From a bacterium (GTDB lineage: Bacteria; Zhuqueibacterota; Zhuqueibacteria; Residuimicrobiales; Residuimicrobiaceae): a DNA stretch of 59,206 bases. Below are positions 21,721 to 38,667 of this stretch, in pieces (within the stretch, counting starts at the first letter, position 1; each line of letters starts with the position of its first letter). The stretch is taken from the NCBI GenBank assembly GCA_036788095.1, contig DAIQOA010000004.1:1-59206 (forward strand), given 5' to 3'. The translations under genes and the position numbers were made by a program. The notes beneath the pieces are model-generated. The model was not told the DNA's origin and searched no databases. It worked only from the letters and a program-made list of their open reading frames with translations.

Positions 21721-23442
21721 TTACCTGTGATCTGCAGGGTGCATCTGCAAAGCGGCCTGAATCTTTTTTCCAGCAGTCAGTTCCGCAACCAGGGCGTTGA
21801 GCAGCTTTTCTCCGGCGGCGCGGGAGGCGGCGAGCTGCCTTTCCAACTCGTCCACCAGGGTCATCAGTTGATCCACTTTGGCGACGATGCGGTGCTGTTC
21901 GGGGAGAGGGGGAATGGCTATTGGCAGCTGCTTCAGCTTGGATGCTTTTATTCCTTTGGCAGTTATGCCAGTTCCATTCTTATCCAATATAAATTTAAAT
22001 TCTTCGCTCAGAATCTGATTAACTAAAAAAGAAGAGTCGATAGCCCCATAGCTCTGAAAACAGATGACTCGTTGTGCTAAAGCGAATCGTTCTTTCAGCT
22101 CGACGACAGCTGCGTTACCCATCGGTGCTTCAGTAGTAAAAAGGACGTCACCCCGCTTCGGAAAACCACGTGTCATCCATTCATGATAATCGCTCTCAGA
22201 TAAAAACTCCTCGGGAAAAAGGTCAATCTGGTTTTTGCGAACGTTCTTTGCGGTGAGCAACCGTATACCCTTAGATAATTTCACTGGTGTTTTCCCTCTG
22301 TAATCAACAAACAGTACAAGGTCAGTCAGTGCACGCCATGACCAGGGGTTCGGAATTTTCCATCGATCATCTGCAGACAATAATCGTTGATTATCCTTGA
22401 CTGCTCGATGGTCATATGCTGCTTTTTTCCGCCGCTGCTCATCGTTTCGTGTGAGCAAGTCATCCACCGACTCATCATGAGGATCTTGAGGGACGAGTTT
22501 GCCCTGGACGGCGAGGGTGAGGATGGTTTTACGCAGGTCGGCAGGAGTGATGAAGTACGAGGAGGGGCTTTGTGCCTCTGTGCCTTTGTGAGAAACCTGC
22601 TTTAATTTTCTCACGGAGGCACGGAGGCACGAAGAGGGGTAGAACAAGAGTTCAAGGTTGACGGGTGTTGGCGCATTAGCGAAACGAGCTAAAGACGCGC
22701 GGGCCAGCGCCGACTTTTTTTCCTCCCGTTCCTTCTGCTCCGCCTCCAGCCTGTCACATAACGCCATCAGCTCATCCACCTTGGCCACAATCCGTTTCTG
22801 CTCAGCAAGGGGCGGAATCACAATAGGAGCAGATTCTAAATCTTTGGTTCCAAGTCGTGGCATTTTCATGCCGTAGTTTTTTGCTGCGGCGTAACGAAGA
22901 AAAGTCGTAGATCGAAGAAAAAACCGAAGAAAATCGGGAGAAAGAAAATTTAAAGGCCTGAGTGGGATAATCTCGGTTGTACAATAACCTGCTTTGGGGG
23001 CAATCACGACCTTATTCAAATACGGGCGAAGTTTTCCGTACAATACATCGCCAGCTTGAAAAGCTGCCTTCGTACTTCGCGAGCGCCGATCGTAAAATTT
23101 AGCAGTTTGGATTATGGCACCGGTTTCACCGTTAATGTCCTCTAAATCAAGCACCCATGCGTCATCAGGAATAGTCGATGGGGAAACTTTTGCAGCGGCT
23201 CGACACTCGGCCGATGCTTGTAATGTTGCCCACCACCATCCCACTGGTGCTGGATAAGGAACCCCACTCTCATCTATTGCCTCTCCGTACCTCTGTGCCT
23301 TTGTGAGAGATTTTTCACATCCCTCTTGTGCGACCAGTTTCCCTCGCACCGCCAACTCTAGCACCAACTCCCGCATCCTCTTCACCGCACCGGGCGCTTC
23401 AGCGAAGAGGTCAAACTTTTCAAATAGGGTTTCTAGGATCAT
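21721..23442 (-). CDS. hsdS: Type I restriction-modification specificity subunit with two in-frame repeat segments
   Basis: Two TRDs (GDVLYGKLRPYL; GDVLFTTEAP) and repeated PPLxEQxRIVAKVDxLM conserved regions; ATG at 23442 (MILETLFEKF). Confidence 0.93.
   Translation of the reverse strand: MILETLFEKFDLFAEAPGAVKRMRELVLELAVRGKLVAQEGCEKSLTKAQRYGEAIDESGVPYPAPVGWWWATLQASAECRAAAKVSPSTIPDDAWVLDLEDINGETGAIIQTAKFYDRRSRSTKAAFQAGDVLYGKLRPYLNKVVIAPKAGYCTTEIIPLRPLNFLSPDFLRFFLRSTTFLRYAAAKNYGMKMPRLGTKDLESAPIVIPPLAEQKRIVAKVDELMALCDRLEAEQKEREEKKSALARASLARFANAPTPVNLELLFYPSSCLRASVRKLKQVSHKGTEAQSPSSYFITPADLRKTILTLAVQGKLVPQDPHDESVDDLLTRNDEQRRKKAAYDHRAVKDNQRLLSADDRWKIPNPWSWRALTDLVLFVDYRGKTPVKLSKGIRLLTAKNVRKNQIDLFPEEFLSESDYHEWMTRGFPKRGDVLFTTEAPMGNAAVVELKERFALAQRVICFQSYGAIDSSFLVNQILSEEFKFILDKNGTGITAKGIKASKLKQLPIAIPPLPEQHRIVAKVDQLMTLVDELERQLAASRAAGEKLLNALVAELTAGKKIQAALQMHPADHR
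22557..22639. repeat. Hairpin element (R arm 22568-22595 + L arm 22607-22634) inserted in frame in hsdS
   Basis: 28-bp inverted arms with 4 transition mismatches and an 11-bp loop; flanked by ACGAGGAGGGG (22557) / ACGAAGAGGGG (22629), exactly 72 bp apart. Confidence 0.85.
23281..23310. repeat. R arm of the CACRRAGG repeat inside 5' hsdS
   Basis: CTCTCCGTACCTCTGTGCCTTTGTGAGAGA; shares an exact 19-mer (CCTCTGTGCCTTTGTGAGA) with 22575-22593. Confidence 0.85.
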
Positions 23443-23463
23443 AGCATTTCCATACAAGCTATT

Positions 23464-23526
23464 CTCTCACAAAGGCACAAAGCCCACAAAGAGTTTCTCC
23501 TCTATCCCTTTGTGCCTCTGTGAGAA
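23464..23526. repeat. L+R arm pair in hsdM-hsdS intergenic region
   Basis: CTCTCACAAAGGCACAAAGCCCACAAAG ... CTTTGTGCCTCTGTGAGAA; 17/18 inverted match. Confidence 0.85.
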
Positions 23527-23536
23527 CAGATTTTCT

Positions 23537-24991
23537 TCATCTATTGAGCGCTTCCATGAGCTGCGCTTTCAGCTTTCCACGGGTTTCCGCTATCTGCGCC
23601 AGCAACTTTTCGTATTCGGGCAGAAGGTGGTCCACATCACCAGGACCCTCGTCGTCGTTATGCGGATTCTTAAGATCGAGGTTATAGTTGCCGGCCTTGA
23701 TCTGGTCGATGGACACGCGCCAGGCGAATTCGTTTTCCTCTCGCGTCTTGTAGCCGTCGGTCTCACTGCCCCACCAAACTCTCTCCGGCTCGAACTCTTC
23801 GATGCGAATGGGTTTGGTCTTGTTGTAGCTCTTGGCTCCGGCTGGATAGGGGTGCTCGTAATACCAGACTGTTTGCGTCGGCGCGCCCTTGGTAAAAAAG
23901 AGCAGGTTGGTGCGGATGCCGGTGTAGGGATTAAAGACGCCGTTGGGCAAACGAACAATGGTGTGAAGGTTGCATTCGTTGAGCAATGCCTCTTTGATCC
24001 GGGTTTTGACGCCTTCGCCAAAGAGGGTGCCGTCGGGCAAAACCAGACCGGCGCGGCCGCCGGGTTTAAGTATCTTCATCAGCAGCACAAGGAAAAGATC
24101 AGCGGTTTCGCGGGTGCGGAACTCGGATGGAAAGTTGGACTCGATGCCATCCTCCTCCATGCCGCCAAAAGGCGGATTGGTGACAATCACGTCCACCCTC
24201 TCCCTTGGCCCCCAATCTCGCAGAGGCCGGGCCAGGGTGTTGTCGTGACGCACGTTGGTGGGCACATCAATGCCATGTAGAAGCATATTGGTCATGCACA
24301 GGATGTGGGGAAGATGCTTTTTCTCGATGCCGGAGAAACACCCCTGAATGGTGCGCTCGTGGGCCGCGGTCTTGGCCTGCTTGCGCAGGTGGTCGATGGC
24401 GCAGACGAGAAATCCGCCGGTACCGCAGGCGGGATCGAGGACGGTCTCGCCGAGACGGGGATTGACCTGCTCGACAATAAACCGGGTGACGGCACGCGGG
24501 GTGTAAAACTCTCCGGCATTGCCCGCGGACTGGAGGTCCTTGAGGAGCTTTTCGTAGATGTCGCCGAAGAGGTGGCGGTCGTCGGAGGCGTTAAAGTCAA
24601 TGCCGTTGATCTTGTTGATCACCTGGCGCATGAGGGTGCCGTTTTTCATATAGTTATTGGCATCCTCAAAGGCGGTGCGGATGAGCGCATGCATCCGGTC
24701 GCCGCCGGTCAGGGCTTTCAGCTTGAGCAGCAGGGTGTTGTTGACAAAGTCAAGCAAGGCGTCGCCGGTGATGCCTTCCTCGTCCTTGGCCCAGGTGGAC
24801 CAGCGCAGGTGTTTCGGCAGCGGGGATTTGTAGCTGTCGCGCAACAGCGTCATCTCTTGTTCCCGGTCGTCAAAAATTTTCAGAAACAACATCCAGCCGA
24901 GCTGTTCCAGACGCTGGGCATCGCCGTAGGTGCCGGCATCTTTGCGCATAATATCCTGAATGGTTTTGACGATGTTGGAAATGTTGGGCAT
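23537..24991 (-). CDS. hsdM: Type I restriction-modification methyltransferase (N6-adenine)
   Basis: GEFYTPR, DPACGTGGFL, TNPPFGG; start at MPNISNIVKTIQ with GGAGG SD. Confidence 0.95.
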   Translation of the reverse strand: MPNISNIVKTIQDIMRKDAGTYGDAQRLEQLGWMLFLKIFDDREQEMTLLRDSYKSPLPKHLRWSTWAKDEEGITGDALLDFVNNTLLLKLKALTGGDRMHALIRTAFEDANNYMKNGTLMRQVINKINGIDFNASDDRHLFGDIYEKLLKDLQSAGNAGEFYTPRAVTRFIVEQVNPRLGETVLDPACGTGGFLVCAIDHLRKQAKTAAHERTIQGCFSGIEKKHLPHILCMTNMLLHGIDVPTNVRHDNTLARPLRDWGPRERVDVIVTNPPFGGMEEDGIESNFPSEFRTRETADLFLVLLMKILKPGGRAGLVLPDGTLFGEGVKTRIKEALLNECNLHTIVRLPNGVFNPYTGIRTNLLFFTKGAPTQTVWYYEHPYPAGAKSYNKTKPIRIEEFEPERVWWGSETDGYKTREENEFAWRVSIDQIKAGNYNLDLKNPHNDDEGPGDVDHLLPEYEKLLAQIAETRGKLKAQLMEALNR

Positions 24992-25001
24992 TAAATATCC
25001 T

Positions 25002-25157
25002 CCCACAAAGGCACAGAGACACAAAGTTCATTAATCACTATGGATGAATCGGCTATTGTTTCATTCACCTTGGCGCCTTTGTGCCTCCGTGAGAAACATC
25101 AAGCCGAGGAATGATTGGACTCAGGATCACCTCTCACAGAGGCACGGAGGCACAGAG
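25002..25157. repeat. Three arms (L 25002-25026, R 25069-25096, L 25131-25157) between hsdM and the GxxExxY gene
   Basis: Same TCT-(CACRRAGG)x3 consensus in alternating orientation. Confidence 0.85.
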
Positions 25158-25569
25158 TATTTCATAAAACGCCATTGATGATACGGGTGATGCCCTCTTT
25201 CATGAGTTCATCCCCAAAATTCAGGAGATAACCCAACTTGTAACCGGTCAGCCGTAAATAGGTCAGCAGCTGTTTCTTGTGAGCAGGACTCACCTTCTCC
25301 ACTGATTTCAACTCGATAATCACTTTGCCGTTTACGATCAAATCAGCCCGAAAGCCTTCATCAAAACTCAATCCCTCGAACACGATGGGCACGGGTGCCT
25401 GCCGCTTGACCGTCAGGCCGGCTTGCTCGAGCTTGCGCGCCAAAATGGTCTCATAAACGGTTTTGAAAAACCCGGGACCAAGAGCCTGATGTAATTTTAC
25501 CGCTTGATCCACAATGATTGATCCAATATTATTTTCATTCATCTTGGCGCCTCCGTAACGCTGTGAGAG
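25131..25569. mobile_element. Putative 439-bp element: GxxExxY gene bounded by inverted repeat arms
   Basis: L arm 25131-25157 and degenerate R arm 25543-25569 (about 20/27 inverted match) abut the gene ends. Mobility is inferred, not shown. Confidence 0.5.
25162..25542 (-). CDS. GxxExxY family protein (PD-(D/E)xK nuclease fold)
   Basis: 126 aa; LHQALGPG..., RADLIV...IIELKSV..., QLLTYL...GYLLNF; the signature reads GFFKTVY. Confidence 0.9.
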   Translation of the reverse strand: MNENNIGSIIVDQAVKLHQALGPGFFKTVYETILARKLEQAGLTVKRQAPVPIVFEGLSFDEGFRADLIVNGKVIIELKSVEKVSPAHKKQLLTYLRLTGYKLGYLLNFGDELMKEGITRIINGVL

Positions 25570-25578
25570 CCGTTTATG

Positions 25579-27948
25579 TTAAGCGGCCTTTGCATAAAGG
25601 GCTGTTTCGAGCTCACGAACGGCATCAAGGTAGCGCTCGCGGCTACCGAAAAAGTTGATAATTTCCACCGGCGTGCCAAAAGAAGTAAGCGGGTCGACCT
25701 TGAGGATTTCCATTGATTCGACACTGGCAATGCCGCTATCAGCATACTTAAACAGAAGCGCGTCAAGAACGGCGCGGGCCTGGTCGCCGTACTTGGCAAA
25801 GACATGCCGTTTCCTCACCCTTTCCGCACGTTCCCGGCGCGTGAGCGGCGGCTGATCAAAAGCGACATGACAAACAAGATCAAAGGGATCATAATTGCGG
25901 CCAACCTGCTCTGCAAGCTCGTCGAAAAAGACACCCTGATTGACGAGCTCCTCGATAACCGCCTGCTTTTTATCGGCATGGTTCCAGGTGGTTAGGAAGG
26001 CGTCGAGGGAGGCGTAATTTTTGCGCACGGACTTGCGCGCATAGTCCATGAGAGATTCAGTGATGAGTCTCCCGTATTCATCCAGGTATTGGATGCGCTC
26101 CATGACCACACTAACTGGAACGCTGTCCACCACGTAGCGGATATGCGGTTGGGGAGATTCGCCGCCGAGATCAGAACCGGGCAGCAGCGGAGGGTTGATA
26201 GATTCGCCACCCGGCGAGGGATCTGTGCGCGGATCGTCCGGAGGTACGGACGGCTCACCAGGGCCAGGCTCGTAAATCTGCACAGGATCACCGTCAAAAG
26301 TGGGATCGGCAAACAAGGCAGTGGCGCGACGAAAATCCATAATGGTAAAATAAAACTTGTTATAATCCTCATTGATACGGGTGCCGCGTCCGATGATTTG
26401 CTTGAACTCGGTCATCGAATTGATGATCCGGTCAAGGACGATCAAGTGGCAGGTCTGTGCATCCACGCCGGTGCTCATCAGGCGGGAAGTGCAGGCAATG
26501 ACCGGGTAAGTGGACTCGGGATCGATAAAGTTATCGAGCTGGGCCTTGCCCTCTTCATTATCTCCGGTGATGCGCATCACGTACCTGGAGTTGGCGGCGG
26601 CAAGGTCGGCGTTGTTGTTGACTAAAGCCTGACGCATACGTTCCGCGTGATCAATGTTCTCGCAGAAGATGATGGTTTTGGCGAAGCGATCGGTGGCGCG
26701 GAGAAATTCAGTCACTCTGGCGGCCACCGTCTCGGTTCGCTTTTCAAGCACGAGATCCCGGTCGAAATCGCGATCATTGTATTCCCGATCCACAATGACC
26801 TGGCCGTATTTGTCGGTCTGGCCAATTTCCGGCCGCCAGCCGCCAAGGTCCTTGTCAAGGCCGATGCGCACGACCTTGTATGGGGCGAGAAAACCATCCG
26901 CGATGCCCTGGCGGAGTGAATAGGAATACAGTGGCTCGCCAAAGTATTCGATGTTGGAGATATCACGAGTCTCTTTGGGCGTGGCGGTGAGACCAATCTG
27001 AGTGGCCGTGGTGAAATACTCCAGCACCCGACGCCAGCGCGCGTCATCCGCTGCACTGCCGCGATGACACTCATCCACGATGACGAGATCAAAGAATTCG
27101 GGTGAAAACTGCTTGTAGATGTTCATCTCCTCTTCCGTGCCGGTTACGGCCTGGTAGAGGCTCAGATAGATTTCATAGGATTTATCGATCATGCGGTGGG
27201 TGATCTTGGTCATGGCTTTGCCGAACGGTTTGAAGTCATTGGTCTTGGTCTGATCGGCAAGGATATTGCGGTCCACGAGAAAGAGGATGCGCTTCTTCGC
27301 ACCGGCCTTCCACAGCCGCCAGATGATTTGGAATGCCGTGTAAGTCTTGCCCGTGCCGGTGGCCATGACCAACAAGATCCGGTTTTCGCCTCTGGCGATG
27401 GCATCGACGGATCGATTGATCGCGATGTGCTGATAGTAACGCGGAGCCTTGCCGGAGCCGTCGTCGTAATAGTCCTGGATATTGACCTGTTGCTGGTTAT
27501 CGGTCCAGCCTTTTGCCGTGCAGTAGCGCTGCCACAGTTCTTCGGGCGCAGGGAATTGGTCGAGGGGGATCTCGCGGGTGACCCGGCCGCCGGTTGCGGT
27601 GCGGTCGTGCTCAAGAAAAGCATCGCCATTAGAGCTGTAGGCAAAGGGCACATCGAGAATTTCGGCGTATTCGAGCGCCTGCTGCATGCCATCGCCGACT
27701 GCATGGTTGTTGTCTTTGGCTTCGATGACGGCAATCGGAATGTTGGGTTTGTAGAACAGCAGGTAATCCGCCTTCTTCGCCTCCCCTCGCCTCACCGTCT
27801 TGCCGCGGACCATGACGCGGCCTTTGGTAAAATAGGCCTCTTCGTGGATCTGGGTCATCAGGTCCCATTTGCCGCTGTTTGCACCGGCCAGTGCGGGTGT
27901 GATGAACTTGGTGCGGATATCGGCTTCCGTGAAGTATTTTTTTTTCAT
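25579..27948 (-). CDS. hsdR: Type I restriction enzyme R subunit (EcoAI/EcoEI-like)
   Basis: ADY...IEAK nuclease motif, MATGTGKT, DECHRG, STGVD, QIIGRGTR, EcoEI-type C-terminus; start at MKKKYFTEADIR. Confidence 0.95.
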   Translation of the reverse strand: MKKKYFTEADIRTKFITPALAGANSGKWDLMTQIHEEAYFTKGRVMVRGKTVRRGEAKKADYLLFYKPNIPIAVIEAKDNNHAVGDGMQQALEYAEILDVPFAYSSNGDAFLEHDRTATGGRVTREIPLDQFPAPEELWQRYCTAKGWTDNQQQVNIQDYYDDGSGKAPRYYQHIAINRSVDAIARGENRILLVMATGTGKTYTAFQIIWRLWKAGAKKRILFLVDRNILADQTKTNDFKPFGKAMTKITHRMIDKSYEIYLSLYQAVTGTEEEMNIYKQFSPEFFDLVIVDECHRGSAADDARWRRVLEYFTTATQIGLTATPKETRDISNIEYFGEPLYSYSLRQGIADGFLAPYKVVRIGLDKDLGGWRPEIGQTDKYGQVIVDREYNDRDFDRDLVLEKRTETVAARVTEFLRATDRFAKTIIFCENIDHAERMRQALVNNNADLAAANSRYVMRITGDNEEGKAQLDNFIDPESTYPVIACTSRLMSTGVDAQTCHLIVLDRIINSMTEFKQIIGRGTRINEDYNKFYFTIMDFRRATALFADPTFDGDPVQIYEPGPGEPSVPPDDPRTDPSPGGESINPPLLPGSDLGGESPQPHIRYVVDSVPVSVVMERIQYLDEYGRLITESLMDYARKSVRKNYASLDAFLTTWNHADKKQAVIEELVNQGVFFDELAEQVGRNYDPFDLVCHVAFDQPPLTRRERAERVRKRHVFAKYGDQARAVLDALLFKYADSGIASVESMEILKVDPLTSFGTPVEIINFFGSRERYLDAVRELETALYAKAA

Positions 27949-28517
27949 TGGTTGTCCGGCCGCCTTTTCCTTGCCAAAAGATGACATCCCTATCATAGAC
28001 TTTTTATTCCCGACTACTGATTCATCCCTGCCTTATGAATGCACAGCCGCTCAGCATAAACATAGACCCCACCGTCAAGGCAGCGCCACGAGGGATCCCG
28101 CCCAGTGATTTTGCACCCTCCTAAAAACAAACTTGATTCGTTTGCCGGCCCACTCACCGCCGGGCCTTAACGACGATCATCAAAAGCATGTTGCTATGCG
28201 CGTTTGGAATGTCCGGGTCGAGCGATAATAGAAAAAAAGCGCAATCCAGTCCACACCATGAACTCGACCGCGCTCTTCTCCTCTCGAACCCCTCCCGGTA
28301 TTCTTCGGCTAATTTTTTAATGTTACAAAAAATGACGGCAAAAATCAAGAAAATTGGCAAAAGAGCACTTTTTGACGTTCATAAAAAAAAGCATTACAAA
28401 CCCGAGCTTTTCACGTTCTTCATTGAACTACCGCGGACAAAAACCGGTGGTTCGCGATCTCAGTCAAAGGAACCACTGGGTCTCCTTCTTTAGCATGAAT
28501 GCTCTGCCGGCGCCGTC

Positions 28518-31612: not shown

Positions 31613-32146
31613 GCTGGTATCGGATAGATGAAGCCTCCTAGTCCGGTCAGCGGTTATAAGTTTAAATATTTTAAAACAGAGCGCCCTATCAGCAATGACG
31701 GCTTTTACTATTATCCTTGGCATTTGTTTTGCAAAAAGGATCGTATGCCATTCAGGACCGGTTTGTCGGTCAGCTGTTCCGGACCAGGATAGGTCGATAG
31801 TATACATATCGCCATCACGTTTGCAAAAGCCGCTATCTTTTCGATATACAAGTCTTGGTTGGTACAGATACTCTTCCAAAAAGTAGCGGTAGAGTTTCTG
31901 GGGTGGAGTGAATTAAATCTCACCCAAAGCAGCATCTCGCGGCTTAAAAGTTCTGTGCACCGTTAGGTTGCCATCATGGTGACTGGTGGCTCATCGCATA
32001 CTTTGCGTAGAACGCTTTAGCCGCTCCAATATTCAACACTGTTTTAATTATTTGTACGACATTCCGGTTTTTTTATAGGCCGTCCTAAAAAGTGGTGAAT
32101 GCGTGGAGTGCCGTTTTTCTGTTAATTAAAAGAAAGGAGCCGTACC

Positions 32147-32626
32147 ATGGGACCACAGATACCTGCAAACTTGATTGCCAATAAAACCCTTGGCAAGGGA
32201 AAAGCAACTATCAAAATACCCAGCAGATCTGATAGCACCCATTCCGGAGCTTTCAATGTCTCGATTAACGTTCATTTCGATCCTGTCGTCGATCCCTATC
32301 CTGCCGGCACGGTAAAAATCACCATTGATCTGTCCGATTCATTCTGCGGGGTTCTCACCTCAACCATGCTTTTCCACCTCAGCTCCACAGGCAAACACAC
32401 ACCGACCATGTATCTGTCGGGCCGATGCACGTTGACATCAACCACTCCTAGGCCTCTTACACACAAGTGTCAGTTTTGGCTTTCCGTGGCCAATAACAAG
32501 CGTACAAGAGATTTAATCAATTCGGATATTGTCAGCTTTTTGGTAGTAGATAAAAGCGGCACCCGCGTTGCTTATGGTACGGGACCCATTATCCAAGGAA
32601 CCGTTCATGTTCAAGCCTTTTGCTGA
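32147..32626 (+). CDS. Hypothetical beta-rich protein (159 aa)
   Basis: AAGGAG SD; natural composition (GKHTPT, DIVSF...RVAYGTGP); function not recognised. Confidence 0.75.
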   Translation: MGPQIPANLIANKTLGKGKATIKIPSRSDSTHSGAFNVSINVHFDPVVDPYPAGTVKITIDLSDSFCGVLTSTMLFHLSSTGKHTPTMYLSGRCTLTSTTPRPLTHKCQFWLSVANNKRTRDLINSDIVSFLVVDKSGTRVAYGTGPIIQGTVHVQAFC

Positions 32627-32770
32627 GCGTTGAATATAAATTCCCGACCAAATTAAAAGCAGAAGTAACCTACGTTCGTTCCCAAGGGCCGTTGCACACT
32701 CGCCTTATCTGGTTGGCTTCAAACAACTGCTGCTGTTGGAATAGCGGGCGATTTTTAAGAGGACGGTATT

Positions 32771-33487
32771 ATGCCGACGGGAGACGATTTGATTCGTCTA
32801 GCCGAAACCAGATTGGGTGAAAAATATTGCAGCGTGCGTGTTCCTAAAAACAATTCAAACTGGCATGGTCCCTGGGATTGCGCCGAGTTTGCGTCCTGGC
32901 TGGTTTTTCAGGTAATGGGTGAGCTTTACGGTTGTATCGATAACGCGGTGGATCCCGCCGTGGCGGAGGCTCATTCCGGCGCCTGGGCTAGAGACGTCGA
33001 GGAAAATCGTTTAATCCGCTCTAACCCGGTCGAAGCGAATCATTATCCCGGAATGGTGCTGGTTCGCAAGCCCCCATTACCTGGTTTCATGGGGCATATT
33101 GCTATAACCGATGGCTATGGCAAAACGATCGAAGCAGCCGGCAAGGTTTTGGGGGTTCGTCGCTGCTCCGTCGAGGGGCGACATTGGGATTATGCCGCCA
33201 GGATTCCCGGTCTGTTGTATACATCAACCGGCCATATCGAGGCGGTCCGGCCTTTGCCTCTACTGCTTAAATGGACGAGCCCACCGATGGCCGGCTCTTT
33301 AGTGCTCAAAGTCCAAGAGGCTCTTTCTCGAGCGGGCATGGATCCCGGCGCACTGAATGGGGAGTATGGACCTCATACGCTTGCGGCGGTGTACGCTTTT
33401 CAGAGCATGAACGCACTGGTCCCAGATGGGATGGTCGGTCCTAAAACCGCAAAAAAACTGGGCATCGAGTGGCCAGGGACTTGCTGA
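32771..33487 (+). CDS. NlpC/P60-CHAP-like peptidoglycan hydrolase with C-terminal PG_binding_1 domain
   Basis: WDCAEF (Cys) and GHIAI (His) catalytic pair; VQEAL...G.YGPHT..AV..FQ...L..DG.VGPKT binding domain. Confidence 0.8.
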   Translation: MPTGDDLIRLAETRLGEKYCSVRVPKNNSNWHGPWDCAEFASWLVFQVMGELYGCIDNAVDPAVAEAHSGAWARDVEENRLIRSNPVEANHYPGMVLVRKPPLPGFMGHIAITDGYGKTIEAAGKVLGVRRCSVEGRHWDYAARIPGLLYTSTGHIEAVRPLPLLLKWTSPPMAGSLVLKVQEALSRAGMDPGALNGEYGPHTLAAVYAFQSMNALVPDGMVGPKTAKKLGIEWPGTC

Positions 33488-33590
33488 GGCGACAGATTTT
33501 CAGCAGGGGGGATTTTTTTTTGAATCAATAGCGGTGCTTGCCGATAGGCTCGCTCCATGAAAAAACGACGACAAGCATGGCGCCCTTCGC

Positions 33591-34346
33591 TCAAGAGATG
33601 GTTCCCATATTCTTACAATAAGCGACATACCATTCCGAAAAGGGATGATCTGTTGCCGGAAAATTAACCGCGACATGTGGGGCATTCTCGAAAAACTCCC
33701 ACAATCGAACGATTTTTCCTTTTTGTCTCTGCTCAAGTCCCCATTGAGCGGCTTTCGCGCTTGCCGCATAGAAGAGCGCCTTCTCTGTTTCGGCAGCCTC
33801 TCCATTCTGGTGCTCAACAAAAAAAAACTTTTCCATAATTGGTGAATTCTGATAGGCGAGACGGGTTTGCAAATTTCCGGACAATACGACCAAAACACGT
33901 CCGACTAGGTCGCAAACCCTGATCTCATCTTCTTTGAATCCGTTTGCCGAGTATAGCGCACCCGCAAAAATGTTCTTAACCAGATTTTCAAGATCTTGTA
34001 AAGTCGACCTATTCGTATTTCGCAGATCACTTCTAACATCCAATCCAAGTACAACCGGGACATGACGGCTGTGCCTCATGGACCACTTTGCAATCGTCTT
34101 AAGCCAAGAGTCTAGATCAATGGATGAAGGATTGCTAAAACTTTGATCGACTTCATGACCAGCCTTCATGTGGCCTACAAGAAAATTTCTATTTCCGGCA
34201 TGAATATCTATTTCAAGAAAACGAATGCCTGCGTCCAGCTGCTCAAAAAGTGTTTTTCTCGAACCGCCGATGCCGCCGGAATAGGAATTGTGCGTCGCCA
34301 TAAAATAGGCGTCTTTAAACAAAATTTCACATGGGTTGTTTGTCAT
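33591..34346 (-). CDS. PI-PLC X-domain phosphodiesterase-like protein
   Basis: ATHNSY, EQLDAGIRFLEIDIH, VGH motifs. Confidence 0.75.
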   Translation of the reverse strand: MTNNPCEILFKDAYFMATHNSYSGGIGGSRKTLFEQLDAGIRFLEIDIHAGNRNFLVGHMKAGHEVDQSFSNPSSIDLDSWLKTIAKWSMRHSRHVPVVLGLDVRSDLRNTNRSTLQDLENLVKNIFAGALYSANGFKEDEIRVCDLVGRVLVVLSGNLQTRLAYQNSPIMEKFFFVEHQNGEAAETEKALFYAASAKAAQWGLEQRQKGKIVRLWEFFENAPHVAVNFPATDHPFSEWYVAYCKNMGTIS

Positions 34347-34435
34347 CGTCCTGATTTGTTTAATGACGTCCCTTCATCGCCGCTGACACGTGTTTTAGCG
34401 GCGACCGCCCCTACCAAGTTCAGCGCATTCGCTTT

Positions 34436-36118
34436 CTATTCAAGTAGGGATTTTCCATCAAGGCCCGTATAACCAACGCGAAAGAGGTCAAGGATAGTCG
34501 GAGTCAGATCAACATTTCGGGCTTTTTCGAGGACATGGTTATTTACGGCAAAGTGTTGATCGATCAGATCTGGATTAAAAGGACTGGCAATGATGAGTGG
34601 GACCAGCATATCGCTTCTTGCAAAACTGCCATGAGTGGAATTGGTTGCCTCCTTGCTTTCAAATCGGAATCCTTCCAAATATCTGGGGATTAAGATGATA
34701 TCGCCGCTATTCCCACAGGTCATCTCATCTAGTAATGTCTTCATCGGCAAATACTCCGCACCCTGGGATACATCCTCTGCAATGGGCTCGCCCGGAGAAT
34801 AGGCGCCACGGCGTAAATAATGAATCTGATAATTGTTTTGCTGATAATCGTGATATAATATGGCATCGATGCCTTGTAAAAGCCGATTGCCGATCCCAGA
34901 ACGATCCTCTTTTTCATTTTGGCTTTGTTGTTGAACCTTCGCACATAATAAATGCAATAAGCTTTTCACATGACTTGCATCGGGCGGTTGACGCCAAGAA
35001 TAATTTTCAGACAATCCCTTACGAAGAAAAATATGCATCAGGCCGGCAGTGTCTTTGATCAGGCAAGTGTTATCATCGACCGGAGATCTAAAAAGGTCGC
35101 TCTTTGGATCTCGGGCATCGACCCCGCAAGCCGACAGGACATCCGCAATCTTTCCGACTTTGATGTATTTTTTTTCCGTATCGGCTATCCCGGTATGGCC
35201 ATGATCGGAGCAAATGATGAACAGGGTCTGCTTCAAGTCCATGACATCGTTTTTGGATTTGAGCGTGGATAAAAGTCGTCCCAAACATCTATCCACGTGA
35301 TCTATCAAGTACCTCTCCTGTTCTTGCGCGGTTGAATGTTGATGAGCAAAATGATCGTTGCCCGCAAAGTAGAGCGTCAGCAGATTGGGCGATTTATCGA
35401 TATGATCGATTTTCCGAACATACTCGTTTGCTTTGTCCATCATGGCGTCGTCAAACAAGGGCTTTTCCGGGAATAACTTCGCTATGATGCAGTCTTGATA
35501 TTCGTCCAAATTTTCTGTTTGGCTGAGAATCATTTCATCGACGTCTGGTTTAATCCAGTCGATCGGTTTCGCACCATCGTTTTTATTCGGAGAATTGATA
35601 AGATTTTCATTTTGTGTTGAAAAAAATTGGAAAACGATCGCACTTTTCAAGCGCTGTTCCGCCAGATGGTCATAGATGGTTTTCGTACCCCGTCGTAACA
35701 TTTGATTTGCACTGCCAATCCCATCATAAAATCGAACCGCATCTAAAGAAGTAAAATTTTTCTCGCCGTTCTTGGCGGCAAGACTGCCGCCCTGGCGATC
35801 GAAAAAAAAATTGGCTGTTATGCCATGATGTCGAGGATACAGTCCGGTGAAAAGAGAGGCCTGACAAGGATGCGTATAAGAGGGAGAGACGGTAATGCAT
35901 TCATTAACCACCACCGCGGCAGCCTTTATTATTTCGCAGGGGAAAAAGAGATCCTCCAAGCTTGGAGCGCTGTAATCCTTAAAATGGATTTCACCAAAAA
36001 GTTGGTGAAGATGGGGTGCGAGGGACTCGTTCCCCTTGGCCAGGACATGATAGAGGACGTCGCGACGCAATCCATCGACATCGATAAGAATAACCGTTTT
36101 AACCCGTCGATCGCTCAT
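34436..36118 (-). CDS. Alkaline-phosphatase superfamily nucleotide pyrophosphatase/phosphodiesterase
   Basis: LIDVDGLR, PSYT...SLFTG..P..HGI..N, DH..H, SDHG, THG metal/nucleophile motifs; start at MSDRRVKTV. Confidence 0.85.
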   Translation of the reverse strand: MSDRRVKTVILIDVDGLRRDVLYHVLAKGNESLAPHLHQLFGEIHFKDYSAPSLEDLFFPCEIIKAAAVVVNECITVSPSYTHPCQASLFTGLYPRHHGITANFFFDRQGGSLAAKNGEKNFTSLDAVRFYDGIGSANQMLRRGTKTIYDHLAEQRLKSAIVFQFFSTQNENLINSPNKNDGAKPIDWIKPDVDEMILSQTENLDEYQDCIIAKLFPEKPLFDDAMMDKANEYVRKIDHIDKSPNLLTLYFAGNDHFAHQHSTAQEQERYLIDHVDRCLGRLLSTLKSKNDVMDLKQTLFIICSDHGHTGIADTEKKYIKVGKIADVLSACGVDARDPKSDLFRSPVDDNTCLIKDTAGLMHIFLRKGLSENYSWRQPPDASHVKSLLHLLCAKVQQQSQNEKEDRSGIGNRLLQGIDAILYHDYQQNNYQIHYLRRGAYSPGEPIAEDVSQGAEYLPMKTLLDEMTCGNSGDIILIPRYLEGFRFESKEATNSTHGSFARSDMLVPLIIASPFNPDLIDQHFAVNNHVLEKARNVDLTPTILDLFRVGYTGLDGKSLLE

Positions 36119-36346
36119 TGACGAATCCTTTCGACGAAACGAGGAAAAGCCGCGACGAAGCACACGTCCGCCAGAGAGTTTTCACCCACGCTATCGGCAA
36201 GTCGCATCACCCGCTGTTGCCGTCGTTGAGAAAAAGACTAGGCAACGACCGAACTTTCCGGGAATCGTTGGCCTTTTTCTCCCTGGTTCCTTATAAAAGC
36301 ATGCGTAATCGGACTGCCGGAAAACGCACAACGCCTATCAAAATCT

Positions 36347-36604
36347 TTAGGCCCTTGGCAGTTGCTGATTTAAAATTTGTTGAATACGTTCGACTTTTAG
36401 AACCATATCCGTGCAGTCACCTTCGATTTCAACCATCCTACGGCAGAAAAACTCCAGTTCATAGTCCGGTTCCCACAGATGGCGTTCTTTATATTGAAGC
36501 AGATAATCACCGGTTCGAGTCTGAAGAAAATAATCAGGCCCTTCACTTTTTGTGCCAACCCGGCCGTGCTTGATAAAAAGCAACCCTTTAAAATTCCTGT
36601 TCAT
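36347..36604 (-). CDS. Small hypothetical protein (85 aa)
   Basis: Compact beta-rich sequence (GTKSEGPDYFLQT); co-oriented with neighbours. Confidence 0.6.
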   Translation of the reverse strand: MNRNFKGLLFIKHGRVGTKSEGPDYFLQTRTGDYLLQYKERHLWEPDYELEFFCRRMVEIEGDCTDMVLKVERIQQILNQQLPRA

Positions 36605-36714
36605 TTTTCCACTCCTTGATCGGCTTCAGACAACCGATTCTAATGACTCCCCGCCATCTGAAGAGGCGGCTTTCTCCACTCCCCAACATTCCAGATTTTT
36701 GCTCAGCGGACACG

Positions 36715-38268
36715 CTAGCGTCGATCATAGGCTTCGGAGAAAAACTTGAAAATATGGGAAAATCGGGTGCGCCAGAAATCGGGGTGATGTCCTCCTCGCC
36801 CATTATGGTCTGCGCCTGGGATGATGCCGCCCTCAGTATACAAGTTTTTAGCTTGAAGCAATGCGATGATATCAAGGGTGGCCTGTTTGGTTCCGGAAAG
36901 GACAAATTCCAATATGTCGTTTTCGCCAATCTCCAGGAAAAAATCCGGGGCCCCGCCATCTGAATTCATCGGCATTTGTTTGGCCAGACAAAGTGGATTG
37001 TTTGCGGCGAGGCTGTCCCTATCTAATATGACCCGATTCCGAACCTCTATCATACTCGCCTCATTCTTAAGGGGAGCAGAACCGAAAACATCAATAAATT
37101 CAGGCGCATAACGATTAAACAGATACAGCTGTACAGAGTTGGTGCGCATATCGAGGGGCCCAGCTAATTCAGCGGCAGCAGCAAAGCTCCCGGGGTCACG
37201 AAGGGCAAGCTTCATGGCGCCGAATCCGCCCATGGAAACGCCCATTATAAACTGCCGCTTGGGCAATGGAGCCAGTTTTTCTTCGCCGATCAGAGTCGTT
37301 ATTTCTTCGGGAAGATCATTCATGATATACTTTTCGTGCCAACCCGTAACGAAAAGATCCAAACGGTTTTCGGGATTCTCCCCCCCATTTCGAGGAAATA
37401 TCGATTCTCGGCCGATGCCCTGTGGATTGCGTCTTTCAGGAGGACCCAGCCGATTTGAATACCAGCTGTTGTCCGCGGCCGGCATGACGATGATCATATC
37501 GTGCAAAGTTTCCAGCCAGTTGGGGGGATCGTGCGGCATATACGCCATGATGGCTTGGACGATCTCCGGGATTCTATCGATATCCGGCGCTCCCGCTACT
37601 TCTCGAAGTCGAGGGCCAATTTTATCTAGAAACTCGTCCGGAGTTGAACATTCCATTAGAGTGTAGGCAATGATCGGAAGATAAAGACCGGGCAGGTCAG
37701 CGGCAAACAACCACGAGTTCTCATCATAATTTGCCAATGTGCTAAAACCCAAATCATCCCCCAATTGCCCCATTTCTGTTCTCAGGCCATTGCGCTTGCC
37801 ATTGTATCCGTGTAAAGCATACACAACAGGGAATCTGGCCCCATCGACATGAAAAGAAGGTGGATACATTATCCAATACGGCCGGATAATATCGCTCCCA
37901 GCTGTTTCGCTTAACGACGCACTTTTAAAACGATGGTATTCCAGATAGCGGGGCATGGGTATAAAATCGTAAACACTTTCGCCGCAATTCCCCCAGGCTC
38001 GGCAAATTTTGATCTTACCTCGCTCAATTCCAGCGGGGACCTCGATCAGCAACTCGGTACTCGTCGCTGATAAAACTTGCGCGGCATGCCCGGCTATGGT
38101 GACCTGGTTGCCATCAAGGGCTGCGGAAAAACCCGTCCCTTTGACCAGCACTTCGGTCCCCGCAGGCCCTCCAGGCGGATGAAAAGATTGAATTCTGATA
38201 CAGCCCGCCATCATGAGGAGAATCACCACGCACAAAATACTGGTCAAAGAACGTGAAGTCATTCTCAT
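36715..38268 (-). CDS. Lipoprotein with IPT/TIG domain and alpha/beta-hydrolase (esterase) domain
   Basis: Lipobox MAGC; IPT/TIG (GPAGTEVLVKGTGFS...VTIAG); PVVYALHG, GVSMGG nucleophile elbow, C-terminal Asp/His; GGAGG SD. Confidence 0.8.
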   Translation of the reverse strand: MRMTSRSLTSILCVVILLMMAGCIRIQSFHPPGGPAGTEVLVKGTGFSAALDGNQVTIAGHAAQVLSATSTELLIEVPAGIERGKIKICRAWGNCGESVYDFIPMPRYLEYHRFKSASLSETAGSDIIRPYWIMYPPSFHVDGARFPVVYALHGYNGKRNGLRTEMGQLGDDLGFSTLANYDENSWLFAADLPGLYLPIIAYTLMECSTPDEFLDKIGPRLREVAGAPDIDRIPEIVQAIMAYMPHDPPNWLETLHDMIIVMPAADNSWYSNRLGPPERRNPQGIGRESIFPRNGGENPENRLDLFVTGWHEKYIMNDLPEEITTLIGEEKLAPLPKRQFIMGVSMGGFGAMKLALRDPGSFAAAAELAGPLDMRTNSVQLYLFNRYAPEFIDVFGSAPLKNEASMIEVRNRVILDRDSLAANNPLCLAKQMPMNSDGGAPDFFLEIGENDILEFVLSGTKQATLDIIALLQAKNLYTEGGIIPGADHNGRGGHHPDFWRTRFSHIFKFFSEAYDRR

Positions 38269-38316
38269 CAAACACCTCCCTTATCAATGAAAGCTCGCCC
38301 TGAGTCGCCCCTTCAT

Positions 38317-38667
38317 TCATACCGCGGAGTGCTGCTCCTTGTTTGTTCTTGGAGAAATGCCTTCACTTTTGAAGCATTTACAAACGCAGCAGTACAGGAT
38401 GATGAGCATGAATCCCCCCAACAGTGCGGGAAAAAGAGAGACCAACACCCCATAGGCCGGACCCCAACGGCCGATGACGGGAGTGCCCAACCAAGACCCC
38501 AGCCAGGCGAGTACCCAGGTGCAGATGAAACAAGGCGGGCAATCGCACGGAAGCTTGTTCGGTCCAGACCATATTGGTTTACAGATAACGAACCACCAGA
38601 TCAAAGCAACAAGCAGACTGACTAAAGTAATGACAGCCCAACAGGTAAAATCCATATACCATATCAT
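38317..38667 (-). CDS. Cys-rich small membrane protein, GlsB/YeaQ/YmgE-like
   Basis: GGAGG SD; three hydrophobic segments, LGSWLGTPVIGRWGP motif; nine Cys. Confidence 0.65.
   Translation of the reverse strand: MIWYMDFTCWAVITLVSLLVALIWWFVICKPIWSGPNKLPCDCPPCFICTWVLAWLGSWLGTPVIGRWGPAYGVLVSLFPALLGGFMLIILYCCVCKCFKSEGISPRTNKEQHSAV

Follow-up and report, generated by a model that had tools for sequence, protein, structure and literature searches.

Repeat arms in a type IB restriction-modification operon: a candidate selfish repeat family with a GxxExxY nuclease as its partner

A bacterial type IB restriction-modification (R-M) operon is crowded with short, inversely oriented repeat arms, two of which enclose a gene of the GxxExxY family, a small nuclease family of unknown function. 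This raises the question of what the arms are, and whether they serve the R-M genes, the GxxExxY gene, or themselves. The window analyzed here is the whole 59,206-nt stretch of DAIQOA010000004.1 (GCA_036788095.1), positions 1-59,206 of the forward strand. The arm consensus, TCTCAC(RRAGGCAC)2RRAG, is 26 nt long and consists of three 8-nt units.

All operon genes are encoded by the minus strand and run hsdR, GxxExxY, hsdM, hsdS (Table 1). HsdR matches the EcoAI-family model NF046051 with 1172 bits (cutoff 550) and contains ResIII and EcoEI_R_C domains. HsdM matches PF02384 (N6_Mtase) with 261 bits, likewise contains HsdM_N, and is 66-92% identical to the HsdM of 80 loci from many phyla, with values of 80-92% reached across phyla, while HsdS features two Methylase_S stretches. 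The R-M island has a GC content of 0.47-0.55, compared to about 0.58 in its flanks. Six independent assemblies are colinear over the locus at 99.7-100% identity, with no structural variants among them.

Table 1. Features of the R-M island; the strand of an arm is the one on which TCTCAC reads.
Feature	Position	Strand	Description
hsdR	25579..27996	-	type IB (EcoAI/FtnUII family) restriction subunit, 805 aa
Arm A1	25543-25568	-	sequence TCTCACAGCGTTACGGAGGCGCCAAG; last base directly before GxxExxY ATG
GxxExxY gene	25162..25542	-	126 aa, predicted PD-(D/E)XK fold
Arm A2	25132-25157	+	partner of A1; zero mismatches; begins 4 nt past GxxExxY stop
Arm A3	25069-25094	-	found by pattern search
42-nt filler	25027..25068	-	5'-terminal remnant of another GxxExxY gene (GTGAATGAAACAATAG...)
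Arm A4	25001-25026	+	TCCCAC variant, the only one among nine arms
hsdM	23537..24994	-	N6-adenine methyltransferase subunit, 485 aa
Arm A5	23500-23525	-	degenerate inner unit
Arm A6	23465-23491	+	one unit of 9 nt
hsdS	21721..23442	-	specificity subunit, 573-aa ORF
Arm A7	23283-23308	-	within hsdS, translated SLTKAQRYGE
Arm A8	22609-22634	+	within hsdS, translated as part of ...SSCLRASVRK...
Arm A9	22568-22593	-	within hsdS, translated SHKGTEAQS

Seven arms are matched by the pattern TCTCACRRAGGCACRRAGGCACRRAG with at most three mismatches, compared to 0.00 expected in 100 shuffles, and a 15-mer core of the arm gives 13 overlapping matches, all inside 22568-25157, compared to 0.05 expected. A repeat search of the window adds two degenerate arms (23465-23491 and 25543-25568). 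This brings the total to nine arms in strictly alternating orientation, spanning 22568-25568 and confined to the R-M island, with no arm in the rest of the 59-kb window. Nine alternating arms, and none elsewhere in the window, had been described in a first-pass annotation; both statements are borne out, and the chance expectation is nil. The same annotation placed arms at every junction from hsdR to hsdS, but three of them (at 23283, 22609, and 22568) are instead inside the hsdS ORF. Its fillers of 42 and 385 nt between TCTCAC-outward arms are correct, the latter being the GxxExxY ORF plus 4 nt. However, the third filler is about 8 nt rather than 16, because the inner units are degenerate, and a fourth TCTCAC-outward pair, enclosing 648 nt of hsdS, was missed.

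The GxxExxY protein scores 131 bits against TIGR04256 (cutoff 35) and 129 bits against PF13366. The best fold matches of its AF2 model (pLDDT 89) are Cas4 SSO0001, lambda/LHK exonuclease, and MGME1, which supports the PD-(D/E)XK fold assigned earlier; as modeled, the protein is a PD-(D/E)XK nuclease with a Cas4/lambda-exonuclease-like fold. Residues D67, E77, and K79 are present. Position 27 is lysine, where the 44 aligned homologs keep glutamate at 90% or more, which confirms the K-for-E substitution in the name motif. Two arms are placed close to translation starts: A1 provides GGAGG 8 nt upstream of the GxxExxY ATG, and A4, which reads GTGGGAGGatatttaATG on the sense strand, is a putative Shine-Dalgarno sequence of hsdM.

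Exact copies of the arm were found in no fewer than 118 contigs, drawn from many phyla. Arm-bearing contigs belong to the PVC phyla, Chloroflexota, Bacteroidota, Spirochaetota, Desulfobacterota, Gammaproteobacteria, and Myxococcota, and the isolates with an exact arm include Stieleria and Cerasicoccus. The 74 TCTCAC-outward pairs in arm-bearing contigs have fillers of 6-1503 nt, and arm pairs 380-520 nt apart all enclose GxxExxY and nothing else. The near-identity of the arms across phyla is unusual for the ends of mobile elements and counts against a mobile-element reading.

The link to GxxExxY is also seen in a sample of 80 loci with 81 GxxExxY genes, picked by protein alone. In this sample, an 8-nt-periodic arm lies within 100 bp of 59 of the 81 genes, and arm density is 7.7 per kb near GxxExxY compared to 0.36 per kb farther off. 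This 21-fold difference confirms the suspected enrichment of 8-mer-periodic inverted repeats near these genes. The commonest layout (35 cases) is arm>Gx<arm, that is, arm-ATG...stop-arm, and an arm ending at the base before the GxxExxY ATG recurs in many phyla. Moreover, the arms fall into two subtypes, CAC and CGC, which follow the GxxExxY phylogeny. The subtype equals that of the nearest protein neighbor in 52 of 59 cases (27 expected, maximum 41 in 1000 shuffles), and distant arms of one locus agree in subtype in 28 of 35. This co-variation could reflect simple co-inheritance of the gene and its flanks. The neighbors of GxxExxY genes are heterogeneous, with 171 Pfam families among 129 ORFs, and one identical protein (P0111) is found in at least three different gene contexts.

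It is conceivable that some other factor, either a trans-acting transposase or recombinase or host repair, moves or maintains the arms, and that GxxExxY is a passenger or a domesticated arm binder. No GxxExxY gene is present in 106 of 118 arm-bearing 8-kb tiles, and no arm was detected at 22 of the 81 genes in the protein-chosen sample. IS110-family elements are found inserted in arms, and tandem duplications at arm clusters take in host sequence, which points to ordinary unequal recombination. However, the IS110 elements interrupt the arms as targets and are not bounded by them, and at the sampled loci no second gene family is found repeatedly inside or next to arm pairs. The abutment of arm and GxxExxY start codon in many phyla and the strength of the subtype co-variation also speak against another factor, which is quite unlikely.

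Shorter arm pairs enclose GxxExxY remnants or unrelated filler. In the window, the 42-nt filler starts with GTGAATGAAAC, which matches the GxxExxY start ATGAATGAAAA, and 10 arm bases are also shared; therefore, this filler is what a deletion has left of a second GxxExxY gene. In addition, A3 is 81% identical to the A1 region over 36 nt, start codon context included. Comparable between-arm remnants are found at three other loci (L080, L198, and L209). From locus to locus, gene-less pairs mostly have unrelated fillers, in contrast to classical MITE families. One Phycisphaerales genome contains a gene-less pair family with related fillers.

Arms are absent from 60 of 80 related type IB loci, which therefore represent empty sites, and the distance from hsdR stop to hsdM ATG is 3 nt in most related loci. 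The hsdS ORF of 573 codons is uninterrupted despite its three arms, all translated in frame. A7 occupies the linker from the N-terminal conserved region to TRD1, which also carries arms in L014, L251, L260, and L262. A8 and A9 with a 15-nt spacer form a 75-nt (25-codon) in-frame insert compared to arm-free homologs: the EQKRIV-PADLR distance is 86 residues in the window and in L209, and 61 in six hsdS homologs without arms. The comparison of hsd loci proposed earlier thus yields empty sites both in whole operons and within hsdS. A direct repeat, CCCCTC(T/C)TCG, flanks the A8-A9 insert, which alone has such a possible flanking repeat (9-10 nt). No convincing target-site duplication is found at the inserts examined, and the insert at the R/M junction has extra non-arm bases on each side. 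L209 is the closest arm-bearing relative of the window and shares its arm positions. Arm identity between the two is 83%, similar to the 70-87% of flanking coding DNA, as expected for an old, co-inherited insertion.

The location of arms in hsdS might suggest a built-in recombination scaffold, as the first-pass annotation had also proposed, in which hsd cassettes, above all TRD1, are inverted or exchanged to vary specificity. TRD1 is bracketed by arms that lie 648 nt apart in the window and 634 nt apart in L014, at least six loci have arms in hsdS linkers, and R-M genes are the commonest single neighbor class of GxxExxY, although they account for 3 of 129 ORFs. However, when hsdS of the window is compared with that of L209, homology ends not at arms but at ordinary conserved region/TRD borders, with the right TRD1 border about 180 nt from the nearest arm (A8), and TRD2 contains no arms. 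Inversion of TRD1 between inverted arms would yield antisense TRD1, and no second hsdS and no recombinase gene lies within 16-38 kb of the window. Colinearity of the six assemblies, the arm-free majority of homologous loci, and the location of most arms and most GxxExxY genes outside R-M loci also oppose shuffling of R-M cassettes, which is unsupported and highly improbable.

The arms could instead act in RNA. Each pair of adjacent arms is predicted to form a stem of 22-28 bp (z -4 to -10; -7.2 for the A5-A6 hairpin on the sense strand), and an A1-A2 stem around the entire GxxExxY ORF occurs in the MFE fold of the sense transcript. Such stems might be stabilizing structures or targets of RNase III-type processing, comparable to rRNA intervening sequences or Correia elements, that excise the GxxExxY message from operon transcripts and uncouple the cistrons, with the DNA spreading solely through recombination and horizontal transfer. 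Two short TCTCAC-outward pairs fold better sense than antisense (-37.5 vs -26.1 and -37.1 vs -28.1 kcal/mol), as this would predict, but the hsdS-internal pair is stronger antisense (-48.9 vs -35.2), and cutting this stem would ruin the hsdS message. The elements are located in transcribed regions and co-oriented with their neighbors (47:15 upstream, 48:21 downstream), although these figures are near the general bacterial background. Among transition mismatches between the arms flanking GxxExxY genes, G.U outnumbers A.C (30 vs 14) when the sense strand is considered, but the excess of G over A in the 5' arm equally fits selection for GGAGG by the start codon. Moreover, mismatches between partner arms are as often transversions (55) as transitions, so G-T wobble, offered earlier as an explanation of the A/G variation, is not clearly borne out. 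An RNA-level role also leaves unexplained the match of subtype to nuclease phylogeny and the nuclease-only cargo, and overall appears unlikely.

The sequence comparisons instead favor, with slightly better than even confidence, the reading that the arms are widespread selfish dispersed palindromic repeats with the GxxExxY nuclease as their dedicated partner gene. By analogy, the best reading would be a REP/RAYT-like selfish repeat family with a Cas4/lambda-exonuclease-like nuclease partner. This points to an undescribed selfish repeat-plus-nuclease element and not to an R-M shuffling device. The earlier idea of an autonomous element with MITE-like derivatives survives in part: an element and its gene-less forms fit the comparative data (cross-phylum association, sole cargo, remnants, subtype phylogeny, empty sites, and several contexts), but autonomy, in the sense of movement driven by the 126-aa nuclease itself, is putative, no clear target-site duplication is found, and the window copies look old and fixed.

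A full unit would be about 440 bp, with a 26-nt arm, the GxxExxY ORF from the next base, and an inverted arm about 4-15 nt past the stop. Gene-less arm pairs, hairpins with fillers of 6-300 nt, would be decay products and non-autonomous relatives. A hydrolytic 126-aa nuclease alone cannot perform strand transfer. The nuclease may recognize arms of its own subtype, probably in hairpin, cruciform, or single-stranded form, and cut there, after which host recombination or replication would repair the break from another arm-bounded copy. Such repair would spread arms and cargo, and could also account for deletions, tandem duplications, and chimeras, all of which are observed where arms cluster. Insertions would persist in operons and genes because the arms provide a GGAGG-type ribosome binding site, have no T-tract and no terminator motif, and are free of stop codons in five of six reading frames. 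In the window, an ancestor of the type IB operon would have gained the GxxExxY unit and a second, now decayed unit between hsdR and hsdM, as well as the hsdM/hsdS hairpin and the in-frame arms in hsdS linkers, and these elements would then have ridden with the operon as it moved horizontally into the present genome. They are most likely old and inactive; with K27 in place of E27 and six invariant assemblies, the window gives no sign of activity.

Several known systems share features with the arms. Phase-variable type I R-M loci, such as pneumococcal SpnD39III/ivr, have invertible hsdS segments and several hsdS copies or half-genes, usually with a tyrosine recombinase, and their repeats are hsdS coding sequence itself. 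The window likewise has inverted repeats in hsdS near TRD borders, but with one hsdS, foreign repeats, no recombinase, and no structural variants. The Rickettsia palindromic elements (RPEs) and Neisseria Correia elements are palindromic repeats without a known transposase of their own that are tolerated in transcribed regions, RPEs as in-frame, translated insertions in protein-coding genes and Correia elements as transcript hairpins processed by RNase III. Each of these families is limited to a single genus and has no known associated gene, whereas the arm family spans many phyla with a specific nuclease gene as cargo. In 23S rRNA, intervening sequences can harbor a small ORF for a four-helix-bundle "IVS protein" (PF05635) that is bracketed by inverted repeats. 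As with the arms, a small ORF whose role is unknown sits in long-stem inverted repeats inside a transcribed host unit, but the protein family is different, arm pairs at the sampled loci enclose no PF05635 gene, and no arm was noticed in an rRNA gene.

Prokaryotic MITEs and terminal inverted repeat (TIR) transposons (reviewed in PMC10969869) share with the arms terminal inverted repeats of about 26 nt around a coding unit, gene-less derivatives, and presence/absence polymorphism in related loci. However, the arm element lacks a transposase of the DDE or any other type, shows no consistent target-site duplication, has mostly unrelated fillers in its gene-less pairs, and displays an 8-nt periodicity within its arms.

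The REP/REPIN and RAYT gene system (Bertels and Rainey 2011, PMC3116915; also PMC3337134) resembles the arms in its short, chromosome-dispersed, mainly intergenic repeats, which form hairpins as inverted doublets and clusters of alternating orientation, in the placement of one small enzyme gene between inverted repeats, and in the co-variation of repeat type with enzyme lineage. IS110-family elements insert into REPs (PMC1525189), as they do into arms. The enzymes differ, since RAYT is a Y1/HUH tyrosine transposase and GxxExxY a predicted PD-(D/E)XK nuclease. As far as PMC5581495 describes them, RAYTs are typically single-copy and vertically inherited, compared to the often multi-copy GxxExxY genes that are horizontally spread across phyla. 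Finally, a single arm consists of three tandem 8-nt units and is no palindrome itself, unlike a REP; and while REPs are lineage-specific, arm sequence is nearly constant across phyla and arms are also translated inside genes.

Arms of 26 nt, each composed of three direct 8-nt units, are found in the type I restriction-modification (R-M) operon of the window. With the consensus TCTCACRRAGGCACRRAGGCACRRAG and no more than 3 mismatches, seven arms are recovered from the 59-kb window (0.00 expected), the 15-nt core gives 13 overlapping matches (0.05 expected), and a repeat search of the window adds two degenerate arms, for a total of nine. The first-pass annotation had described nine strictly alternating arms and none elsewhere, and both statements hold: all nine lie in one 3-kb island at 22568-25568, and none occurs outside it in the 59 kb searched. 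Three of the nine are intragenic. With > for TCTCAC... and < for ...GTGAGA along the transcript, the order is hsdR, >GxxExxY<, 37 nt, >42 nt<, hsdM, >8 nt<, hsdS start, >TRD1<, 15 nt, >, hsdS rest, where TRD is a target-recognition domain; the arms are numbered A1 to A9. Paired arms form 26-nt terminal inverted repeats that are 85-92% complementary. A single arm has no internal dyad, and a hairpin needs two arms. An assembly or adapter artefact was rejected because arms are present in isolate genomes and independent assemblies.

Features of the R-M operon and its surroundings in the window
Feature	Position	Strand	Remarks
Type I R-M operon	21.7-28.0 kb	minus	single operon
hsdR	27996-25579	minus	type IB, EcoAI/FtnUII family; NF046051 1172 bits (cutoff 550)
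GxxExxY gene, 126 codons	25542-25162	minus	TIGR04256 131.1 bits; PF13366 129.4 bits
hsdM	24994-23537	minus	N6_Mtase PF02384 and HsdM_N PF12161 present
hsdS, 573-codon ORF	23442-21721	minus	PF01420 matches in two stretches
117-aa HigB-like ORF without family match, and overlapping 366-aa HTH (HigA-like)-IrrE/M78 peptidase fusion	21517-20071	minus	directly downstream of hsdS
VIT/vWA protein gene, MerR regulator gene	upstream of R-M operon		

The window is chromosomal and encodes EF-G and GlnRS. HsdR, HsdM and a two-TRD HsdS lie in one minus-strand operon (27996-21721), the arrangement of a type IB (EcoAI family) system. The G+C content of this R-M island is 0.47-0.55, compared to about 0.58 around it, and the ORF pair 3′ of hsdS resembles a toxin-antitoxin or immunity-repressor pair carried along with the island. 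A second stretch of low G+C (0.45-0.51) at 32000-40000 encodes a PI-PLC-like protein, a phosphodiesterase/sulfatase-like protein and an esterase with a TIG domain, and may be another acquired island.

Several properties of the arms bear on how they coexist with gene expression. A1 places GGAGG 8 nt 5′ of the GxxExxY ATG, and A4, the sole TCCCAC variant, reads GTGGGAGG 9 nt 5′ of the hsdM ATG; these two sequences may serve as ribosome-binding sites. In a forward arm, T does not recur past TCTCAC, which makes a stop codon impossible in any frame, and a reverse arm allows one TGA, in a single frame, so that five of the six frames are open. The three arms within the hsdS reading frame are translated, as SLTKAQRYGE and SSCLRASVRKLKQVSHKGTEAQS. 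A terminator role was rejected, since no arm fits the pattern of a stem followed by a T-tract. In the NCBI record of the same locus (L199:6778-7926, equivalent to window 23442-21721), hsdS is called as 382 aa starting past the first arm, compared to 573 aa for the full open frame, and a 42-aa ORF on the opposite strand is a spurious call; gene callers appear to have been misled by the arms.

The gene between A1 and A2 belongs to a family of small PD-(D/E)XK nucleases. Its product matches TIGR04256 far over the cutoff of 35 bits, along positions 4-116 of the 116-position profile, and PF13366 (PDDEXK_3) far over the cutoff of 22. The name motif G-x-x-E-x-x-Y is absent as such: the window protein reads G24-F-F-K27-T-V-Y30, and across 44 homologs E27 is conserved at 90% or more. 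Judged by profile score, the protein is a member of the family with a variant motif. The PD-(D/E)XK core residues D67, E77 and K79 are present, and they are invariant in the homolog alignment. An AlphaFold2 model built on the 44 homologs (mean pLDDT 89) gave weak Foldseek matches (E 2.5e-3 to 0.05, TM 0.45-0.57) to Cas4 SSO0001, the Laribacter (LHK) and lambda exonucleases, MGME1 and Bax1, and the family profile, searched against the sequences of solved structures, gave nothing significant. The model weakly suggests the RecB/Cas4/lambda-exonuclease branch of PD-(D/E)XK nucleases, with activity predicted. The family is very large, with 7992 of the 8000 candidates scored passing E = 1e-5 and at least 8000 distinct PF13366 sequences. 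In a 2012 survey of the PD-(D/E)XK superfamily, PF13366 is entered as "unknown" and credited with multiple horizontal transfers (PMC3424549).

The association between arms and GxxExxY genes extends well beyond the window. Eighty loci from many phyla were picked solely by similarity of the GxxExxY protein (56-73% identity). Under the strict consensus, an arm lies on both sides of 24 of 82 GxxExxY genes and on one side of another 18; the 5′ arm of these loci stops exactly at ATG-1, and the 3′ arm starts about 10 nt past the stop codon. Most other GxxExxY genes have variant arms of the same 8-nt-periodic design, such as TCTCACGCAAAGGCGCAAAGACGCTAAG, CTCCCGCAGAGACGCTGAGGCGCAGAG and CACGCAACGACGCGACGACGCAACG, and within one element the left arm variant matches the right. 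A general detector of 8-periodic arms, which gives 0.3 false matches per 59 kb of shuffled sequence, places an arm no more than 100 bp away from 59 of 81 GxxExxY genes, and the layout arm>Gx<arm is seen in 35 of the 81. Arm density is 7.7 per kb within 100 bp of GxxExxY compared to 0.36 per kb elsewhere in the same loci, an enrichment that the first-pass annotation had proposed looking for. Moreover, in 52 of 59 cases the nearest protein neighbour has the same arm subtype (CAC or CGC), where 27 are expected and 1000 shuffles gave no more than 41, and more distant arms of the same locus agree in subtype in 28 of 35 cases.

Among all loci examined, every pair of arms 380-520 nt apart encloses GxxExxY, and no other family recurs there. 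The genes that flank GxxExxY are heterogeneous (171 Pfam families in 129 ORFs). R-M genes are the commonest class of neighbour, yet they account for only three occurrences in the 129 ORFs; together with the 60 of 80 related R-M loci that have no arm, this excludes an obligate link of the arms to R-M. A comparison of L296:1-212 with L287:2260-2500, in the same gene context, shows one 8-nt unit absent from both arms of a pair about 70 nt apart; this concerted change in unit number suggests mutual correction of the two arms or selection for a match between them.

An exact-pattern scan for the arm, with one genome per species, found at least 118 contigs. These include Planctomycetota, Verrucomicrobiota, Lentisphaerota, Kiritimatiellota, Chloroflexota, Bacteroidota, Treponema, Leptospiraceae, Desulfobacterota, Geobacter, Thiotrichales, Chromatiaceae, Myxococcota and others. 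Among the matches listed, Stieleria tagensis and Cerasicoccus arenae are isolates, and several metagenome-assembled genomes (MAGs) give about 10-12 arm-bearing contigs each. At least 74 TCTCAC-outward pairs are present in the arm-bearing tiles listed. Their fillers, of 6 to 1503 nt, for the most part show no relation to each other, and simple repeats, AT-rich spacers and GxxExxY genes with internal deletions are among them. Arms are also seen as tail-to-tail pairs and as alternating arrays, and a Methylacidiphilales contig has hairpins between successive small genes. Another short repeat (CGACAAAG / CTTTGTCG), present both directly and inverted, adjoins arms in several contigs of Verrucomicrobia, Lentisphaerae and Marinimicrobia (L005, L024, L045, L097 and L107). 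A phage or plasmid vector was rejected: arms matched no phage record, 7 plasmid records (chiefly megaplasmids) and 3 of 2.9 million viral contigs. Literature and Rfam searches returned no description of the arms or of their association with GxxExxY, subscription journals lying outside the coverage and an earlier mention being possible. Full-text literature searches with arm strings matched no paper, and the literature on GxxExxY, PF13366 and PDDEXK_3 held incidental mentions and "function unknown" only.

Evidence for movement comes from shared proteins in different contexts and from related operons. The exact GxxExxY protein P0111 has at least three different sets of left and right neighbours, with an LNT, epimerase or cold-shock gene on one side and a sigma-70, UvrA or GreA-like gene on the other, and the exact protein P0113 likewise occurs in multiple contexts. 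Part of this variety could reflect metagenome mis-joining across repeats, which would require several copies regardless. In addition, 80 type IB loci related to the window's operon were compared. HsdM is 66-92% identical over many phyla, which means that the operon is itself horizontally mobile. Across Cytophagia, Armatimonadota, Planctomycetota, Verrucomicrobiota, Chromatiaceae, Nitrospirota and Acidobacteriota (L205-L284) the identity is 80-92%, and the type IB operon has therefore been exchanged very widely between phyla.

A comparison of hsdRMS loci for empty sites, as the first-pass annotation had proposed, found such sites in number: the arm is lacking in 60 of the 80 loci, and in most of these the hsdR stop lies 3 nt from the hsdM ATG and hsdS directly follows hsdM. 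The hsdR/hsdM and hsdM/hsdS junctions of these arm-free loci are empty sites. Within hsdS, the spacing from EQKRIV to PADLR is 86 residues in the window and in its closest arm-bearing relative (L209, Kiritimatiellia) compared to 61 in six arm-free homologs, which defines a 25-codon in-frame insert made up of A8, 15 nt and A9. This insert is bounded by an imperfect 9-10-nt direct repeat, CCCCTC(T/C)TCG; at the hsdR/hsdM insert, no target-site duplication was found. L209 is laid out as in the window: its GxxExxY protein is 78% identical, both gene junctions carry arms, and hsdS holds the same insert. The L209 arms are 83% identical to those of the window and the adjacent coding DNA is 70-87% identical; because arm identity is no higher than that of neighbouring coding DNA, the insertions are older than the split of the two operons. 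In-frame arms, some of the CGC type, also lie in lysine-rich hsdS linkers of L014, L251, L260 and L262, which shows that arms have been tolerated at this position repeatedly and independently.

Signs of decay are seen as well. The 42-nt filler between A3 and A4 opens with a copy of the first GxxExxY codons and also shares the arm-proximal bases, and is therefore a relic of a second GxxExxY copy. No structural variants of the window's locus were found among six independent assemblies, which are colinear at 99.7-100% identity; because of this, and because K27 replaces a near-invariant E27, the window copies are regarded as fixed relics. L209:3846-3950, a recombination scar in a cluster of arms, is a chimera: an arm with a ribosome-binding site and the opening 12 nt of hsdM is fused to the final ~32 nt of GxxExxY with its arm, and the genuine hsdM start lies behind another arm. 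In a Prosthecobacter type IB locus (L214:5420-6350), CGC-type arms contain the stop codons of both hsdM and GxxExxY, and a tandem duplication covers the final ~60 nt of hsdM along with the arm; the record has a run of N at the repeats, consistent with assembly trouble there.

The same comparisons dispose of the suggestion, also made in the first-pass annotation, that the arms are a scaffold for shuffling R-M cassettes. Neither the breakpoints of hsdS homology with L209 nor the TRD borders fall at arms, there is a single hsdS with no recombinase or spare hsdS copy within 16-38 kb, the six assemblies are invariant, and most related loci lack arms altogether. An invertible, phase-variable hsdS locus is rejected on the first three of these grounds.

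It is plausible that arm pairs act at the RNA level, as RNase III-type stems in the transcript, and such a role is compatible with a mobile element. The predicted transcript stems are 22-28 bp (z -4 to -10) and reach the ~20-bp stem of an RNase III-processed intervening sequence. For strand-specific RNA pairing, counts of G.U versus A.C mismatches between arms are ambiguous, being confounded by Shine-Dalgarno selection. Rfam at permissive E-values over 21.5-26 kb returned only spurious microRNA hairpin matches far below gathering scores. An RNA-level role also leaves the nuclease cargo and the subtype co-variation unexplained.

Alternatively, another enzyme may move the arms, and one candidate, IS110, was seen. 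IS110-family elements (DEDD_Tnp_IS110 and Transposase_20) lie inside arms beside GxxExxY in L285, L286, L295 and L298, at about 2380-2400, where the junction reads ...CCTACA followed directly by AGGCACGAAGGCACGGAG in place of the intact TTTCACACGGAGGCACGAAGGCACGGAG of L287 and L288; a second IS110 site, in the opposite arm, is found in L302 at about 1370. However, IS110 interrupts arms as targets and is not itself enclosed by them, much as IS110 and IS1111 insert into REP sequences (PMC1525189; PMC11208160).

The association of arms with GxxExxY is real and non-random, and it is broader than a reading of one sequence could see. The arm-ORF-arm unit is conserved; derivatives that lack the gene or have decayed exist, arm subtype co-varies with the protein, and both empty sites and several gene contexts are seen. 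Of the first-pass proposal of a nuclease between inverted arms with MITE-like derivatives, the association and the element architecture stand, and the mechanism is conjectural. Tentatively, and at somewhat less than an even chance, GxxExxY proteins (PF13366) could be the enzymes of unrecognised cross-phylum mobile palindromic elements that spread by nuclease cutting and host repair, with no transposase. The hallmark of this proposed class would be a 26-nt end of three 8-nt units, almost identical from Chloroflexota to Planctomycetota. Ends that carry ribosome-binding sites and no stop codons would allow the elements to live within operons and even reading frames. That arms persist in a restriction operon is explained by their low cost, with a putative ribosome-binding site, no terminator and open frames. 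On the most likely mechanism, the nuclease would recognise its own arms, probably folded or single-stranded. Cut arms would then be repaired by the host from another arm-bounded copy, spreading the arms and converting sites. Since a hydrolytic nuclease is unable to join DNA, any move must be completed by the host. That neither of the inserts compared shows a clean target duplication is easier to reconcile with repair-based copying than with transposase chemistry, although it is not proof.

If this reading is true, it gives the first functional context for small nucleases of a very large family, which annotation pipelines can name without accounting for them, and a second example beside REPIN/RAYT, by a different mechanism, of repeats linked as a population to a single dedicated enzyme gene. 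The arms also explain annotation artefacts, including odd peptides (SHKGTEAQ, LCLCAFV), split or shortened gene calls (such as that of hsdS) and contig breaks. In addition, a working-looking type I specificity gene tolerates 25 foreign codons in its central linker, and arms are natural landing sites for IS110-type bridge-RNA recombinases.

Among known systems, integron cassettes with attC sites (R''/R' RYYYAAC ... GTTRRRY) were rejected, since the arm ends are TCTCAC/GTGAGA and the window has no integrase; unlike integron cassettes, GxxExxY lies inside a palindrome and not between palindromes in 35 of 37 resolved cases. MITEs and other elements with terminal inverted repeats share those repeats and the derivatives with the arm element, but here there is no DDE, serine, tyrosine or HUH transposase and the only cargo is a 126-aa PD-(D/E)XK protein. 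Rickettsia palindromic elements are translated in frame, as arms are too, and Correia elements and rRNA intervening sequences form stems in transcripts, as is predicted for arms. The system closest in logic is REP/REPIN-RAYT (PMC3116915, PMC3337134). RAYT is a Y1 (HUH, IS200/IS605-like) tyrosine transposase, whereas the arm-associated gene matches PF13366 only, with no Y1_Tnp match. The REP unit is itself a short imperfect palindrome, in contrast to the single arm. A genome carries REP/REPIN sequences by the tens to hundreds, mainly between genes; for arms, several MAGs give at least about 10-12 arm-bearing contigs among the matches listed. Both systems have a gene flanked by its own inverted repeats (35/81 here) and a repeat type that co-varies with lineage (52/59 versus 27), and by this analogy the arm element would work like REP/REPIN-RAYT while standing outside that class.
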